NCBI RefSeq assembly: GCF_900096945.1
Contig: NZ_FMKA01000001.1
Location: forward strand, 426,291 to 490,290
Length of the DNA stretch: 64,000 bases
Source of the DNA: Anaerobium acetethylicum
GTDB lineage: Bacteria > Bacillota > Clostridia > Lachnospirales > Lachnospiraceae
Direction of reading: 5' to 3'
The notes under the pieces were generated by a model. That model was not told the DNA's origin and did no database searches. It was given only the letters and a program-made list of their open reading frames with translations. Made by a program: the position numbers and the translations under genes. Positions 4,913 to 61,740 of the stretch are shown here, in pieces. Within the stretch, counting starts at the first letter, position 1. Each line of letters begins with the position of its first letter.

Positions 4913-4963
4913 TTAAAAAGCCTGCAGAAAAGAAACTTTAACCAGGTTTCTTTTCTGCAGGCT
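4913..4963 (-). terminator. rho-independent terminator of aminotransferase gene
   Basis: agcctgcagaaaagaaac-loop-gtttcttttctgcaggct + T-run on minus strand. Confidence 0.6.
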
Positions 4964-4995
4964 ATTATATACCTGAAATGCCGATATACTAAGGA

Positions 4996-8864: not shown

Positions 8865-8932
8865 TCTGAATCCTCTATTCTCCATTTATATCTCGTTAAG
8901 CGAACACTCTTACGAGATGACTAAAAATCAAA

Positions 8933-8972
8933 TCAGGTGTGGTTTTGGCCACACCTGATTTGATTGAACCTT
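8933..8972 (-). terminator. intercistronic hairpin (partial terminator/attenuator) between recA and recX
   Basis: atcaaatcaggtgtgg-loop-ccacacctgatttgat, 16-bp stem, followed by U5 on minus strand. Confidence 0.45.
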
Positions 8973-10390: not shown

Positions 10391-10436
10391 GTTCTTTCTC
10401 CAAAGATAAAGGCATCCTTTCGGATGCCTTTATCTT
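10391..10436 (-). other. 46-nt perfect hairpin (21-bp stem, 4-nt loop)
   Basis: tctccaaagataaaggcatcc-tttc-ggatgcctttatctttggaga; no U-tract; 3' arm overlaps GGAGAAAG RBS of small ORF 10177..10386(-). Confidence 0.5.
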
Positions 10437-10584
10437 TGGAGACTTCAATAAGCTTAAGTAAGCTTTAATTCACTTTATTCATTATACAGTTCAATTCAAA
10501 TCCAGCTTCGACCAATTCAAAATTTTTCACCGGTTCCGAAGCAGTCGGATTTCCAAACGTTCCCAAAACCTTCACAAGGTACAT

Positions 10585-11815: not shown

Positions 11816-11858
11816 CAAAGCCGGAGGTTGTGAACGGACAACCTCCGGCTTTGATTTT
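11816..11858. terminator. bidirectional terminator between pgsA (+) and L,D-transpeptidase gene (-)
   Basis: aaagccggaggttgt-gaacgg-acaacctccggcttt + T/A runs both sides. Confidence 0.65.
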
Positions 11859-13239: not shown

Positions 13240-13500
13240 CTGTTCCTCCCCCTTCTTGTTTAATCCCCCGCTTGTTGCCGGCGCAGCCCCTCCCTGCAGC
13301 CGGAAGTTAATTGTTTCGTTTTATCATTTTTTGCAGACATGCCATTCATAGTTCCATGAAACGTAGGGATACCCTGAGTATGCACTCAGGGTATCTCGAC
13401 ATGTGTTTATAAAAAACATATTAATGCCACAACGAATGATCACTCTCTGTAAATCCGGTCCACAACAGTCCTGTTGATAGTCAGTGTTATTTAATTATTC

Positions 13501-13642
13501 GTAACTATTCAGGACTACGTCCGTCATAGTCACAAATGATGTACACAAATTGCAAAATCAGCAATTTGGGGCACGCATGTCTCGGGTTTTATGCAAATTC
13601 AGCATAAAAACACCTCGCGAGACAGGGGTTCTGAACAGTTAC
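13501..13642 (+). mobile_element. family A MITE-like element, copy A1 (142 bp, ~15-bp imperfect TIRs) with perfect 8-bp TSD aattattc
   Basis: gtaactattcaggac...gttctgaacagttac; flanks 13493-13500 and 13643-13650 both aattattc; >85% identical to copies at 55370, 61598, 42516. Confidence 0.8.
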
Positions 13643-17831: not shown

Positions 17832-17868
17832 AACGCGGAAGCTTTTGGAGCTCCGCGTTTTTTGTTTA
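17832..17868 (+). terminator. rho-independent terminator of ABC-F gene
   Basis: aaaacgcggaagcttttggagctccgcgtttttt. Confidence 0.6.
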
Positions 17869-17912: not shown

Positions 17913-18617
17913 TCAGTTGCCGCTCTCGCTGCCCTGTCCAAGAATATCGTCAATAGCATAATTGCTCAGATTCTTTATTGTATTCATCATATGCTGATTT
18001 GCAAGGGCTTCTGCTTTATCTGCGTCCTTGAGCTTCAACGCCTCGACTATCTGCTTATGTTCCTCGTTAGATTTAAGTGCCCTGCTTTTAGTTGCCATGG
18101 TAATTTTTCTTACCCTTTGGACATAATGATGGAAATCCGACAATACGTGCTCTAAAATCTGACTTCCCGAAATATTGTACATCAGCTCATGAAACTTATT
18201 GTCAAGCTCCAGGACCTGGTCGAAATGTTCCTTTTCTGCATGGAATTCAGACAGATAGATGATTTCTTCAAGTTCGTCAAGCTGTTCATCTGTCACGAGA
18301 CTGGCTGCCCATCTGGCACACAGTCCTTCAAGCAGGGAACGAATCTGATAAATATCCTTTACATCCTTTGACGTAATTCCCATAACATAAGCACCCTTGT
18401 TTGGAATGATATTGACCAGACCCTCCAGTTCAAGCTGCCTCAGGGCCTCCCTGACAGGAGTTCTGCTGACGCCCAGTTCCGACGCAATAGCAGTTTCCTT
18501 CAGTTCCTCGCCTCTTTTAAACTTTCCCGACAGAATATCTTCACGGATCCTGTTAAAAACGCGACCCCGGAGCGAATACTTGTCCGTTACTTCCTTTTGA
18601 ACATCATAGTTGCCCAA
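17913..18617 (-). CDS. GntR family (FadR/FCD subfamily) transcriptional regulator; TTG start
   Basis: N-terminal wHTH ...ELGVSRTPVREALRQLELEGLV..., FCD C-domain; GGAGGT-7nt-TTG. Confidence 0.8.
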   Translation of the reverse strand: MGNYDVQKEVTDKYSLRGRVFNRIREDILSGKFKRGEELKETAIASELGVSRTPVREALRQLELEGLVNIIPNKGAYVMGITSKDVKDIYQIRSLLEGLCARWAASLVTDEQLDELEEIIYLSEFHAEKEHFDQVLELDNKFHELMYNISGSQILEHVLSDFHHYVQRVRKITMATKSRALKSNEEHKQIVEALKLKDADKAEALANQHMMNTIKNLSNYAIDDILGQGSESGN

Positions 18618-18633: not shown

Positions 18634-19800
18634 CTAGTCTAACTTTTCAACAGTTTCCATGATGTAATCAGCGAACTCAGCGCTTGTACAGCCTGTATCC
18701 CTGCCCGTGATTTCCATTTTCTTTTCGGTAATTGTACAGATATCAAGTGCCTTGTAAAGCTTATCAGCTTCTGTATTGTATCCGATGTGTGCAAGAAGCA
18801 TTGCTGCCGCACGGATAACGCTGCACGGATCAGCATATTTATCTCTTCCTTCGGTTACCATACGTGGTGCTGAACCATGAATTGCTTCGAACATGGAATA
18901 TCTCTTGCCGATATTAGCGCTTCCTGCTGTACCTACGCCGCCCTGGAACTCAGCAGCCTCATCTGTCAGGATATCGCCGTAAAGGTTAGGAAGAACGAGA
19001 ACCTGGAAGTCTCTTCTTCTCTTCTCATCAACCAGCTTGGCTGTCATGATATCGATATACCAGTCATCCGCTGTGATATCCGGATAATCCTTGGAGATTT
19101 CCCTGAAAATATCCAGGAATTTTCCGTCTGTAGTCTTAATGATATTTGCTTTTGTTACTGCAGTTACCCTTGTCTTGCCATTTGCTTTTGCGAATTCAAA
19201 AGCCGCTCTGATGATTCTTTCGCATCCCTGGCTGGTTACTACGGTGAAGTCAACGCCTAAATCTTCAGTCACATGGATTCCCTGGCTTCCAACAGCGTAG
19301 CTTCCTTCTGTATTTTCCCTGTAGAATGTCCAGTCAATTCCCTGTTCCGGTATTCTTACAGGCCTTACGTTTGCAAAAAGATCCAGTTCTTTTCTCATTG
19401 CAACGTTTGCGCTTTCTACGTTAGGCCATTCGTCACCTTTTCTAGGAGTCGTTGTAGGTCCTTTTAAAATAACATGGCATTCTTTTAATTCTTCCAGTAC
19501 TGCAGGAGGAATTGCCGCCATTTCAGCCGCTCTTCTCTCAATTGTAAGGCCATCGATCGTCTTGAATTCAACTTTTCCTGCCTTAACATCTTCCTTCAAG
19601 AGATATTCCAGGACACGCTGAGCCTGAGCTGTGATAGCAGGTCCGATTCCGTCCCCTCCGCAGACACCGACGATGATTTTGTCCAATTCCTTATAGTTCA
19701 GGAAATCACCCTGGGCTTTCATCGTATCTACTCTCTTTAACTGTCCTTCTAAAAGCTTTCCGAATTTCTCTTTTGCTGCTTCAATCTGTGATTCGTACAT
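18634..19800 (-). CDS. isocitrate/isopropylmalate dehydrogenase family enzyme (probable NAD(P)-isocitrate dehydrogenase)
   Basis: NLYGDILTDEAA..GGVGTAGSANIG signature; AGGAGG RBS. Confidence 0.8.
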   Translation of the reverse strand: MYESQIEAAKEKFGKLLEGQLKRVDTMKAQGDFLNYKELDKIIVGVCGGDGIGPAITAQAQRVLEYLLKEDVKAGKVEFKTIDGLTIERRAAEMAAIPPAVLEELKECHVILKGPTTTPRKGDEWPNVESANVAMRKELDLFANVRPVRIPEQGIDWTFYRENTEGSYAVGSQGIHVTEDLGVDFTVVTSQGCERIIRAAFEFAKANGKTRVTAVTKANIIKTTDGKFLDIFREISKDYPDITADDWYIDIMTAKLVDEKRRRDFQVLVLPNLYGDILTDEAAEFQGGVGTAGSANIGKRYSMFEAIHGSAPRMVTEGRDKYADPCSVIRAAAMLLAHIGYNTEADKLYKALDICTITEKKMEITGRDTGCTSAEFADYIMETVEKLD

Positions 19801-19825: not shown

Positions 19826-21214
19826 TTATAATGTGACGTTCAGTTTCCTGCAGCTGTCTTCTATAACAGCTATCAATTCATCGTCTGTAAGCACTGTCAC
19901 ACGGCCTGATTCGTATTCTTCGTCAACCCATACTTTAACCATCTGTACAAGTTCAGAATTCTTGTCGACCTGTCTTTCGTCCTTCAGCTTATAATACGTA
20001 TTAATCCAGTGAGCGATTCCCGCAAGACCGGATGTATTCGATACTGCAACAAGTACCGGACGATTTAAAAACTTCTCAGTATCAAATATATTATAAATCT
20101 CTTCATTTTTCAAGAGTCCGTCTGCATGAATTCCTGCACGGGTGACATTAAAGTTCCTTCCGACGAAAGGAGTCCTTGATGGAACCCTGTATCCGATTTC
20201 ATTTTCGAAGTACTCTGCGAGCTCAGTAATGACCGTGGTATCCATTCCATCAAGTGTTCCTTTAAGCTGCGCGTATTCAAAAACCATTGCCTCAAGAGGG
20301 GTATTTCCTGTTCTTTCGCCGATTCCAAAAAGCGAGCAGTTTACGCTGCAGGCGCCATAGAGCCATGCAGTGGTGGAGTTCGTGACCGCCTTATAGAAAT
20401 CATTGTGTCCATGCCATTCAAGGAGTTCTGACGGAACACCTCCGTGTGTCATCATGCCGTAGATAATTCCCTGAACGGAACGGGGTATAACCGCTCCCGA
20501 AAAATTCACGCCGTAGCCCATTGTATCGCAAGCCCTTATTTTAACCGGAATCTGATATTCTTCCATCAGTTTCATGAGTTCCAGGCAGAAAGGAATTACA
20601 AATCCATAGATATCTGAACGGGTGATGTCTTCCAGGTGGCATCTTGGACTGACGCCTGTTTCAAGACATTCTCTGACCACTCCAAGATAATGATTCATAG
20701 CTTCACTTCTGGTCATCTTCATCTTATAGAAAATATGGTAGTCGGAACAGCTTACCAGGATACCCGTTTCCTTCATGCCAAGATCCTTGACAAGTTCAAA
20801 ATCCTTTTTGCTTGCACGGATCCAGCTTGTTACTTCAGGGAATTTATATCCCCTTTCCATGCATTTATATACAGCATCCCTGTCCTTTTTGCTATACAGA
20901 AAAAATTCGCTCTGGCGGACAATCCCCTTAGGACCGCCCAGTCTATGCAGATAATCGAACATCGTTACAATCTGCTCTGTTGAGTACGGTGCCCTCGACT
21001 GCTGTCCGTCTCTGAATGTAGTATCTGTAATCCAGATTTCATCAGGCATATTGAGTGGTACGATTCTGTTGTTGAAAGCAATTTTTGGAACCTCGTCATA
21101 CGGGAAAAGATTACGAAAAACATTTGGTTTGTCTACGTCTACCAGATGATACATGTGTTCCTCAAGCTGCAGAAGGTTTGTATGCGGATTCATTTTAACC
21201 GGTCTATTTTCCAT
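19826..21214 (-). CDS. homocitrate/2-isopropylmalate synthase family (DRE-TIM), candidate Re-citrate synthase
   Basis: TTFRDGQQS, HGHND metal site; start MENRPVKM at 21212-21214 with AAAGGAG RBS; partnered with IDH-like gene. Confidence 0.7.
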   Translation of the reverse strand: MENRPVKMNPHTNLLQLEEHMYHLVDVDKPNVFRNLFPYDEVPKIAFNNRIVPLNMPDEIWITDTTFRDGQQSRAPYSTEQIVTMFDYLHRLGGPKGIVRQSEFFLYSKKDRDAVYKCMERGYKFPEVTSWIRASKKDFELVKDLGMKETGILVSCSDYHIFYKMKMTRSEAMNHYLGVVRECLETGVSPRCHLEDITRSDIYGFVIPFCLELMKLMEEYQIPVKIRACDTMGYGVNFSGAVIPRSVQGIIYGMMTHGGVPSELLEWHGHNDFYKAVTNSTTAWLYGACSVNCSLFGIGERTGNTPLEAMVFEYAQLKGTLDGMDTTVITELAEYFENEIGYRVPSRTPFVGRNFNVTRAGIHADGLLKNEEIYNIFDTEKFLNRPVLVAVSNTSGLAGIAHWINTYYKLKDERQVDKNSELVQMVKVWVDEEYESGRVTVLTDDELIAVIEDSCRKLNVTL

Positions 21215-21272
21215 TTTGCTGCATCTCCTTTTCTTATAAATATACATTTTAAATTTTACAGTATAAGTCAAA

Positions 21273-21315
21273 AAACCTTGGTATCATTGTATACAATGAT
21301 ACCAAGGTTTGTCAA
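21273..21315 (-). promoter_or_regulatory. promoter (TTGACA-16-TATACA) overlapped by a perfect 32-bp palindrome (candidate GntR operator)
   Basis: ccttggtatcattgtatacaatgataccaagg at 21276-21307; contains T.GT-N-AC core typical of GntR/FadR sites; -10 sits at the dyad. Confidence 0.5.
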
Positions 21316-21353
21316 CATGTATTTTATCATTTCATTTTCACTTCAATTCACCC

Positions 21354-21504
21354 GTTACTGTTCACTCCGCGACCAGTAACACGCTACGCGATGCACAGAA
21401 ATGGTTGAAATGCACCATTTCGCGCTGCAAGCCCCGGGTTTTTCGTGATTTCCGCTTCGCTACACTCACAAAAAACACCTTGTGCAAACAACGTGTGAAC
21501 AGCA
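21354..21504 (+). mobile_element. degenerate family A-like element (A5)
   Basis: gttactgttcac...gatgcacagaaatggt-tgaaatgc-accatttc...gggttttt...aaaaacacct...gtgtgaacagcaac; same architecture as family A, ~60% identity. Confidence 0.4.
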
Positions 21505-21513
21505 ACATTCACC

Positions 21514-22059
21514 CTAACCAAATACCTCTGCATAAAGTGCTTCCAGTTCCCTGTACATATCATGCTCATGAAGGGGTTCAAGGACTCTCACGAGGCTTCC
21601 GTAATACCACTTCTGTTCCTTCTTCCCTCTGTTGAACCGGCTCCACAGATTTTCTGCATGCTTCCTGTAATCAATGGATATGCTCCTCAGATTTGCAAGC
21701 TTGTCCGCACACATCAAAAGCATCTCATCATAATCGGCTCTGTCCTTAATGAATTCGATTGTATGCTGTTTTCGCTCCTCCCAGGAAAGCTCCTTGTTTT
21801 CCGAACAGGCGGCAACGAGCCCGGCAACCTTATCACCAAATTCATCTTTTATAATTTCCAATCCTACATCTGTATCTTCTACCGTATCATGAAGCAGTCC
21901 TGCTATGACAAGTTCCGTGCCACAGTCTGCCTTCTGGAGTATCATTGCCGTTTCAAACGGATGCACGATGTACGGAGTGTCCGTACCTTTTCTGAATTGC
22001 CTGAAATGTGCGTTTGACGCAAAACTAATTGCCCTGCTTAAATCCAGATTATCCTTCAC
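21514..22059 (-). CDS. HD domain phosphohydrolase (small alarmone/(p)ppGpp hydrolase-like)
   Basis: HxxxHD...D motif: HPFETAMIL...LLHDTVEDT. Confidence 0.7.
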   Translation of the reverse strand: MKDNLDLSRAISFASNAHFRQFRKGTDTPYIVHPFETAMILQKADCGTELVIAGLLHDTVEDTDVGLEIIKDEFGDKVAGLVAACSENKELSWEERKQHTIEFIKDRADYDEMLLMCADKLANLRSISIDYRKHAENLWSRFNRGKKEQKWYYGSLVRVLEPLHEHDMYRELEALYAEVFG

Positions 22060-39844: not shown

Positions 39845-39890
39845 GATGAAGGCACTACTAGTCCTGTAAGCGACTAGTAGTGCCTTCATC
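39845..39890. terminator. bidirectional terminator between BFD-like gene and leuS
   Basis: gatgaaggcactactagtc-N8-gactagtagtgccttcatc, 19-bp stem. Confidence 0.7.
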
Positions 39891-42404: not shown

Positions 42405-42514
42405 TAGCGTGTCAAAAGCCCTCTCGCAACCTTCGGCTTCGTCAATTTGCACATTCGCCATCCAGCAAGCAGTGATGCAAAACATGATTCAATGAGCAGC
42501 TTTATGAAGACGTT
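42405..42514 (+). repeat. family B repeat, truncated copy B1
   Basis: gtgtcaaaagccc...ttcgtcaatttgcacatt...gtgatgcaaa...tgaagacgt; aligns to 60928..61080. Confidence 0.6.
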
Positions 42515-42515
42515 G

Positions 42516-42657
42516 GTAACCATTCCGGACTACGTCCTTCATAGTTACATATGATGCACACAAATTGCAGGAACTGCAATTTGGTGCACGCCGAACTCGG
42601 GTTTTTATGCAAAAGCAGCATAAAAACACCTCGCGTCACCGGACTTCTGAACAGTCA
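42516..42657 (+). mobile_element. family A element copy A2 (diverged termini, no TSD)
   Basis: gtaaccattccggactacgtccttcatag...caaattgcag-gaa-ctgcaatttg...ttttatgc..gcataaaa...ttctgaacagtc. Confidence 0.75.
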
Positions 42658-56246: not shown

Positions 56247-56267
56247 AACTTCAGAAGGCCCCTGCGA

Positions 56268-56311
56268 TGACAAAAGACGAGTGCGCATGATCGCGCACTC
56301 GTCTTTTGTCA
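56268..56311. terminator. bidirectional terminator (19-bp perfect stem)
   Basis: tgacaaaagacgagtgcgc-atgatc-gcgcactcgtcttttgtca. Confidence 0.7.
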
Positions 56312-56313
56312 TA

Positions 56314-61080: not shown

Positions 61081-61082
61081 AT

Positions 61083-61126
61083 AAAAAAACTGCAGGCTAT
61101 ATAAAATATAGCCTGCAGTTTTTTTA
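61083..61126. terminator. bidirectional rho-independent terminator (znuA / MIF-like gene)
   Basis: A7-ctgcaggctatat-aaaa-tatagcctgcag-T7. Confidence 0.7.
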
Positions 61127-61127
61127 T

Positions 61128-61472: not shown

Positions 61473-61597
61473 ACTGTAAATCCTCCTTCATAGCTAAGAT
61501 ATGTAATACAATGTAGATTATACCCTTAGCCGTTGTCTATTACAATACAGCAAGTGAATTACTCACGACTCAAGTCATGAGAATGCGATGATTGTTT

Positions 61598-61740
61598 GTA
61601 ACTATTCAGGACTACGTCCTTCATAGTCACAGATGATGCACACAAATTGCAAAACCAGCAATTTGACGCCTAGAGAACTCAGGTTTTTATGCAAAATCAG
61701 CATAAAAACACCTCGCGAAACGGGCGTTCTGAACAGTTAC
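61598..61740 (+). mobile_element. family A element copy A4 with 8-bp TSD (gattgttt/gattattt, 7/8)
   Basis: gtaactattcaggactacgtccttcatag...gttctgaacagttac. Confidence 0.8.

Follow-up and report, generated by a model that had tools for sequence, protein, structure and literature searches.

What is the function of a perfect palindrome that lies between two genes read in the same direction and holds a promoter element at its centre? The question arises in a 64,000-nt stretch of Anaerobium acetethylicum DNA (hereafter the window), where a sequence-only reading had singled out a 32-bp palindrome and regarded it as a plausible operator of a GntR regulator or, alternatively, as a possible terminator of an upstream HD-domain gene. 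Our comparison of related loci points to the operator: the inner ~24-26 bp of the palindrome (21279-21304) would be the binding site of the GntR/FCD regulator encoded in the same operon, placed over the operon promoter and serving repression and autoregulation. We assign a probability of about 0.85 to this reading. A second role of the sequence as terminator of the HD gene, specific to this species, is plausible.

The locus and its genes

The genes on both sides of the palindrome are all on the minus strand. The features on which the argument depends are the following.

17913-18617, minus strand: third operon gene, GntR winged-helix plus FCD regulator, the proposed operator binder (domain match)
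18634-19800, minus strand: second operon gene, isocitrate dehydrogenase family, Iso_dh (domain match)
19826-21214, minus strand: first operon gene, HMGL-like synthase (start codon ATG at 21214, preceded by the ribosome-binding site GGAG, 21228-21225)
21270-21275, minus strand: T6 run, intrinsic-terminator-like together with the palindrome (hairpin fold and terminator scan)
21286-21291, minus strand: -10 hexamer TACAAT, inside the putative operator (18-nt spacer, 11/12 consensus matches)
21310-21315, minus strand: -35 hexamer TTGACA (consensus scan; register kept in orthologous loci)
21354-21506, no strand assigned: 153-bp MITE-like insertion (12-nt terminal inverted repeats, 8-bp target-site duplication)
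21514-22059, minus strand: upstream co-directional HD_4 gene (hydrolase domain only of RelA/SpoT)

Domain matches bear out the gene order given by the sequence-only reading, with an HMGL-like synthase, an Iso_dh protein and a GntR plus FCD protein encoded downstream of the palindrome and an HD_4 protein encoded upstream. The HMGL-like synthase, 462 aa long in metagenome gene calls, is called Re-citrate synthase here from its genomic context. A terminator-like hairpin follows the GntR/FCD gene at ~17838-17854. At the other end, the HD_4 gene is upstream and co-directional, so that its transcripts would run into the palindrome. Its product of 181 aa matches the hydrolase part of RelA/SpoT only and resembles a small alarmone hydrolase, and genes for a DUF1653 protein and a MatE transporter lie next to its gene.

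A 38-bp palindrome with a shorter core

The 32-mer pointed out earlier is present at 21276-21307, but perfect complementarity reaches 38 bp (21273-21310, AAACCTTGGTATCATTGTATACAATGATACCAAGGTTT), with 19-nt arms, a loop of zero length and the dyad centre between 21291 and 21292. From base composition, the chance expectation for such a 38-bp palindrome in 64 kb is 2.5e-7. It is the single loop-free palindrome of the window with arms exceeding 7 nt, the runner-up having arms of 7 nt. Of these 38 bp, only the inner ~24 form the conserved site described below. The operator core, TGGTATCATTGTA|TACAATGATACCA at 21279-21304, makes up the inner 24-26 bp, and the outer arms, consisting of CCTTGG/CCAAGG plus AAA/TTT, fall outside the conserved motif. 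On the minus strand, TTGACA (21315-21310) lies 5' of the palindrome and the T6 run (21275-21270) immediately 3' of it.

Long perfect hairpins are found elsewhere in the window, at 61081-61127, 10397-10442, 56267-56312, 39845-39890, 8926-8965 and 11816-11853. In these six the stems measure 16-22 bp and the asymmetric loops 3-8 nt, and an A tract is often paired with a T tract; they appear to be the usual terminators of the organism, some of them probably bidirectional. Among the long hairpins of the window, symmetry through the centre is unique to 21273-21310, and this continuity of the symmetry makes it resemble a site for a dimeric protein. A permissive Rfam scan of 21100-21650 gave no match at gathering score; the sub-threshold matches were all to plant miRNA precursor models and of a generic hairpin kind, at 15-27 bits against gathering scores of 140-440.

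Conservation of the motif across Clostridia

Orthologs of the regulator were collected by an alignment-based scan with one genome per GTDB species, yielding 80 loci. In ~50 of the 80, the regulator gene directly follows a Re-citrate-synthase-like gene, and these synthase-linked loci span Lachnospiraceae, Oscillospiraceae, Acutalibacteraceae and Peptococcaceae. The core ATTGTATACAAT is present at most 260 nt upstream of the synthase in every locus that has both a synthase start and upstream DNA (42/42), and 21279-21304 matches the consensus of the core motif, TGTATAATTGTATACAATTATACA.

A symmetrised position weight matrix made from 54 orthologous species-level sites, with consensus TTGTATAATTGTATACAATTATACAA, carries information at ±1-6 and ±8-11 from the dyad (GTAT-n-ATTGTA | TACAAT-n-ATAC). 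Positions beyond ±12 carry none, so for the window the motif accounts neither for the T-run nor for the outermost 6-7 bp of either arm, and these need another explanation. The window site scores 31.5 bits compared with a set median of 30.4, and sites of at least 12 bits occur essentially once per locus. The exact 10-mer TTGTATACAA likewise occurs essentially once per locus, always upstream of the synthase or just upstream of the regulator gene.

Within the 64-kb window the site stands alone. It is the only one to reach 12 bits, the position weight matrix detects no second operator site, and no local regulon is visible. The sequence-only reading had suggested a search for other copies of the half-site TGGTATCATTGTA, which turned up none in the window besides the site itself; allowing up to 3 mismatches gave 24 matches against 19.7 expected, none with fewer than 2 mismatches except the site itself.

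Where the Re-citrate synthase is missing, the motif stands before the regulator gene itself, aconitase, isocitrate dehydrogenase or Si-citrate synthase. Between or after operator and regulator gene, aconitase is found in L043, L062 and L084 (such numbers denote single loci), isocitrate dehydrogenase in L025, L040 and L067, and the Si-type citrate synthase (PF00285), which is non-homologous to the HMGL-type enzyme, in L047 and L051. The presence of the motif before different enzymes, a non-homologous synthase included, indicates that the association follows function and not only gene order. In those lineages the HMGL-type enzyme has been displaced by a non-orthologous synthase, while the regulator has stayed unchanged. 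The same regulator and operator accompany a Si-type synthase also in L093, L139, L156, L196 and L205.

The reverse test, in which metagenome contigs were scanned by the DNA pattern alone (GTATNATTGTATACAATNATAC), returned the same operons: a citrate synthase, aconitase or GntR gene lies directly downstream in 104 of 120 loci, and ~10 of the remaining 16 are cut by contig ends. Together, the occurrence of the core at the operon promoter in 54 species-level loci with an orthologous GntR/FCD gene and the outcome of this motif-only scan support the operator and autoregulation proposed earlier. It is because of this co-occurrence of motif, regulator and genes of the oxidative branch of the TCA cycle across Clostridia that we assign the motif to the GntR regulator.

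The pattern also occurs in other surroundings. Perfect copies lie upstream of an aspartate aminotransferase gene in L209 (around 1243) and upstream of asparagine synthase and CTP synthase in L157 (around 9340), a hint that the regulon reaches somewhat wider into carbon/nitrogen and amino-group metabolism. In addition, an inverted copy of the right outer operator box lies downstream and pairs with it, both in L012 (around 4925-4990; AATCATACACAGACACTTCTGTGTATGATT, followed by TCTTTTT) and in L086 (around 795-835). The inverted copy could be an attenuator-like hairpin of the 5' leader or a second operator.

The conserved palindrome might instead be bound by a transcription factor other than the GntR protein of the operon. 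A trans-acting factor exists in any case, a different one with the same phylogenetic distribution is formally possible, and the copies of the motif in L209 and L157 have no GntR gene nearby. The motif nevertheless tracks the GntR ortholog even when all surrounding structural genes change, and where Re-citrate synthase is missing it immediately precedes the GntR gene. Moreover, distant GntR paralogs (35-45% identity, unlinked to citrate synthase) mostly lack the motif, and its GT..AC architecture is typical of the family. We therefore consider a different factor improbable and retain the GntR/FCD protein as the candidate ligand.

In line with this assignment, the core TTGTA|TACAA reads GTA-TAC, that is, GTM-N0-KAC, and the operator consensus of the FadR subfamily is NyGTM-N0-1-KACNy (PMC4494728). 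The half-sites had been described earlier as of the kind bound by GntR regulators, and the core TTGTATACAA does fit this consensus.

The promoter and its register

The operon promoter can be placed with some precision. TTGACA-18-TACAAT, with 11/12 consensus matches, is the best promoter-like site on the minus strand within the 5 kb scanned, and from it the transcription start is predicted near 21279. The TTGACA at 21315-21310 was thus named correctly in the sequence-only reading. That reading had, however, taken TATACA as the -10, with a 16-nt spacer, where both the consensus scan and the orthologs favour TACAAT at 21291-21286. We consider TATACA less likely, given 32 orthologous loci with TTGACA exactly 17 nt upstream of TACAAT, and the earlier placement is probably two bases off.

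Among the orthologous loci, an exact or one-mismatch TTGACA ends 18 nt from the dyad in 32 and 19 nt from it in 4, the window being one of the latter; these 36 loci have a spacer of 17 or 18 nt to TACAAT at +1 to +6. A second class of 10 loci, mostly outside Lachnospiraceae, has a TTGACA that ends 27-28 nt from the dyad and a 17-nt spacer to a TATAAT that the operator's left outer box supplies. The two registers found among the 54 aligned sites are exactly 10 bp apart (examples of these sites are in L054, L062, L065, L070, L074, L080 and L081). As judged by consensus matches only, the -35 register is conserved in 46 of the 54 loci. The operator overlaps or abuts the -10 in both classes, which is the position of a repressor; owing to this overlap, conservation does not separate the -10 from the operator. 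A site over the -10, together with a regulator gene that belongs to the operon or directly follows the site, argues for negative autoregulation.

Upstream of the promoter, the sequence-only reading had noticed a degenerate repeat that it called family A-like. The element is real. It is a 153-bp insertion at 21354-21506, in the interval from the HD stop codon to the promoter, and leaves promoter and operator untouched. On either side lies a copy of its target-site duplication (21346-21353 and 21507-21514; minus-strand sequence GGGTGAAT), which starts with the G of the HD stop codon. Multiple alignment identifies it as a diverged member of repeat family D1, which has three copies in the window (13497-13640, 42512-42655 and 61594-61737); membership is apparent only by that method. 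A blastn search of the 168-nt segment 21345-21512 against the window and the loci gave no match with E < 1e-3, and no second copy of the element's end exists in the window. Two metagenome contigs that encode the same proteins, L001 and L002, lack the element, which makes it a strain-polymorphic insertion.

The regulator and its possible ligand

The product of 17913-18617 matches PF00392 (1.2e-19) and PF07729 (3.1e-29), and no NCBIfam equivalog model matched it at its cut-off. Its nearest solved structures are uncharacterised FCD proteins, including TM0439 (3FMS). Its 16 orthologs with 67-100% identity all keep the recognition-helix region GVSRTPVREA unchanged. Equally invariant in these 16 are His143, His187 and His209, which align with the metal-binding histidines His134, His174 and His196 of TM0439 (PMC4746285). 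In CitO of Enterococcus faecalis, also a GntR/FCD protein, a buried divalent-metal site is needed in citrate binding (PMC4746285). With the metal triad kept in the present regulator and the metal needed for citrate in CitO, a carboxylate metabolite is a reasonable effector by analogy, and citrate, isocitrate, 2-oxoglutarate or a related acid are the candidates.

The palindrome as a possible terminator of the HD gene

The second explanation offered earlier was that the palindrome terminates the upstream HD gene. Its physical premises hold: TTTTTT lies 3' of the palindrome and the hairpin is stable. The minus-strand RNA would form a stem of 17-19 bp with a folding energy of -28.2 kcal/mol (z = -7.0), followed by UUUUUU, and a terminator scan flags the palindrome, counting 17 pairs, 6 of them G-C, a 4-nt loop and the tail TTTTTT. 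As a replacement for the operator the proposal does not stand, but an additional role restricted to this species is possible.

That the sequence is a terminator only, with no operator role, we regard as very improbable and have rejected. A hairpin with T6 downstream of a co-directional gene is what this explanation would predict. However, the inner 24 bp are kept in sequence, and not just in pairing, in at least four clostridial families, and the core precedes citrate synthase, aconitase, isocitrate dehydrogenase or GntR genes whatever lies upstream; in 36 sites the upstream gene is divergent. The site also comes with a fixed -35, and its orthologs lack T-runs.

A dual use is a different matter. 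The 38-bp hairpin with its U6 tract would then be both the operator and a Rho-independent terminator of the HD gene. In L001 and L002 the hairpin starts ~42 nt past the HD stop codon (203 nt in the window, the difference being due to the MITE-like insertion), and no other terminator-like site was detected between HD stop and palindrome in the window scan or in these two loci. L002, a contig from a related strain, has T7 after the hairpin. The other terminator-like hairpins of the window are equally long perfect stems with pairing A/T tracts. In many species, for instance in L006, L016, L020, L033, L041 and L070, a separate canonical terminator is located just upstream of the promoter, which suggests that some insulation from upstream transcription is needed; the crude terminator detector missed those in L033 and L041, which are visible by eye. 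Both roles would be compatible: transcription from the embedded promoter would start within the 3' arm, so that its transcripts are unable to fold into the hairpin and would escape termination.

Against the dual use, the T-run is present in this species only, as judged from the tails inspected (7 of the 53 other genome-set sites and 82 metagenome sites), and could be due to chance. A hairpin with a U-tract was not found at orthologous positions in other species, including those with extended arms. The closest sister with the same order from HD gene to citrate synthase, L086, has neither extended hairpin nor T-run. In L086, the TGA stop of the HD gene lies inside the -35 TTGACA of the citrate-synthase promoter (779-784), and a terminator would not fit in between. 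On balance, the outer arms and the T-run may let the sequence of this species also terminate read-through from the HD gene, and to the terminator role itself we would give somewhat less than even odds.

Extension of the arms beyond the motif

The outer arms themselves call for an explanation. At least 6 further complementary bp (6-8) beyond the motif are found in 7 of 54 species, against 0.02 expected, and extensions of at least 4 bp in 14 of 82 distinct metagenome sites. Extended palindromes were seen in L008, L011, L014, L033, L041, L072, L087, L095, L134, L145, L152 and L204 as well as in the window. The extension sequences are unrelated between species, their distribution is bimodal (long or absent), and the extension always ends at the last A of the -35. 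The close relative L087 has a perfect palindrome of 36 bp whose outer arm reads CACTCGG, where the window has ACCTTGG; the relatives L086 and L089 have no extension. Compared with L086, the right arm of the window looks like an insertion of ~19 nt that copies the left arm.

Several of these features would be expected if the extension from 24 to 38 bp were a functionless by-product of hairpin-templated mutation (quasipalindrome template switching), which tends to perfect and extend strong palindromes. The excess of extended sites with unrelated, all-or-none extensions, the joint change of both arms between the window and L087, their absence in L086 and L089 and the copied right arm all agree with such an origin. 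On the other side, the constant end point at the last base of the -35 is a hint of selection, and so, if only marginally, is the orientation of the upstream gene: extensions occur behind 17 of 85 co-directional but 2 of 36 divergent genes (Fisher p = 0.056; p = 0.28 when the comparison is limited to extensions of at least 6 bp). We consider a purely mutational origin unlikely, if well within the range of what could be true. Selection for a hairpin on read-through transcripts could also explain the extension.

The most inclusive interpretation joins three functions in one sequence. The palindrome would be the operator of an undescribed, widely conserved clostridial regulator of the citrate synthase, aconitase and isocitrate dehydrogenase branch, a promoter, and, by way of arms repeatedly lengthened up to the edge of the -35, a hairpin insulating the operon against read-through, the arm extension being selected and not a mutational by-product; in Anaerobium acetethylicum the U-tract would complete a full terminator, and the regulon might be wider and include aspartate aminotransferase and asparagine synthase. 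In its entirety, this combination seems doubtful to us, slightly more so than the mutational origin of the arms.

A model for the operon

The findings presented here allow a model in which a minus-strand promoter of the sigma-70 type has both its -10, TACAAT, and its likely transcription start overlapped by the operator. The regulator would bind as a dimer, or as two dimers on the nested GTAT/ATAC boxes, and, once bound, would exclude RNA polymerase. This exclusion would repress the Re-citrate synthase, the isocitrate dehydrogenase and the regulator's own gene. DNA binding would presumably be modulated by a carboxylate metabolite via the divalent metal of the FCD domain.

The control of the oxidative TCA branch, which supplies 2-oxoglutarate for glutamate synthesis, is poorly documented in Clostridia, including the Lachnospiraceae and Oscillospiraceae, which are abundant in the gut. 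Our data predict a single GntR/FCD repressor dedicated to this branch and a well-delimited operator of 24 bp, a pair kept in at least four families even where the Si type has replaced the citrate synthase. Regulator and operator are directly testable and a candidate metabolite sensor for synthetic biology, and the motif is a clean aid for the annotation of these genomes.

Comparison with known systems

The mechanism as such, a repressor over the -10 with autoregulation, is classical. The regulon is apparently undescribed: in the literature searched, RegPrecise aside, we found no description of a GntR regulator of citrate synthase, isocitrate dehydrogenase or aconitase in Clostridia, or of the motif strings.

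The closest parallels are the GntR repressors of the FadR subfamily, such as DgoR, PdhR and LldR of E. coli and GntR of B. subtilis, which have the same winged-helix GntR domain and all-helical FCD/FadR C-terminal domain and whose genes lie inside the regulated operon, as here. They also share the A/T-rich GT..AC palindrome of the GTM-N0-1-KAC spacing class (PMC4494728). For DgoR, binding to inverted repeats that overlap the dgo promoter is reported (PMC7674646), a placement like that of the present operator. The family-wide survey of 2015 included only one clostridial FadR-type factor (PMC4494728). The present system differs in its targets, which are biosynthetic or central-metabolic (citrate synthase, aconitase, isocitrate dehydrogenase) and not a catabolic sugar-acid or lactate pathway, and in a longer motif, whose outer GTAT/ATAC boxes are nested around the inner ones at a distance of 8 bp. 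The gnt operator of B. subtilis contains ACTTGTATACAAGT, with the same TTGTATACAA centre; no published source for this centre was found in the literature searched.

With Rho-independent terminators, the palindrome shares the stable stem-loop, the G+C-containing stem base, the U-tract and the position downstream of a co-directional gene. In contrast to them, the centre of the hairpin is here a sequence-conserved dyad with a promoter -10, and the U-tract is not conserved elsewhere.

Functionally, the nearest counterpart is CcpC of Bacillus subtilis, a LysR-type repressor of citZ and citB that responds to citrate. CcpC and the present regulator are alike as dedicated repressors, proposed as such in our case, of the citrate synthase/aconitase/isocitrate dehydrogenase branch in a Firmicute. 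They belong, however, to unrelated families, LysR and GntR/FCD, and the operator architecture differs.

CitO resembles the present regulator in its FCD domain, and the metal-binding histidines are kept in the latter. CitO, however, is an activator of citrate fermentation genes that binds upstream of its promoters, whereas the present site lies over the -10, indicating a repressor, and the genes behind it make citrate instead of consuming it.
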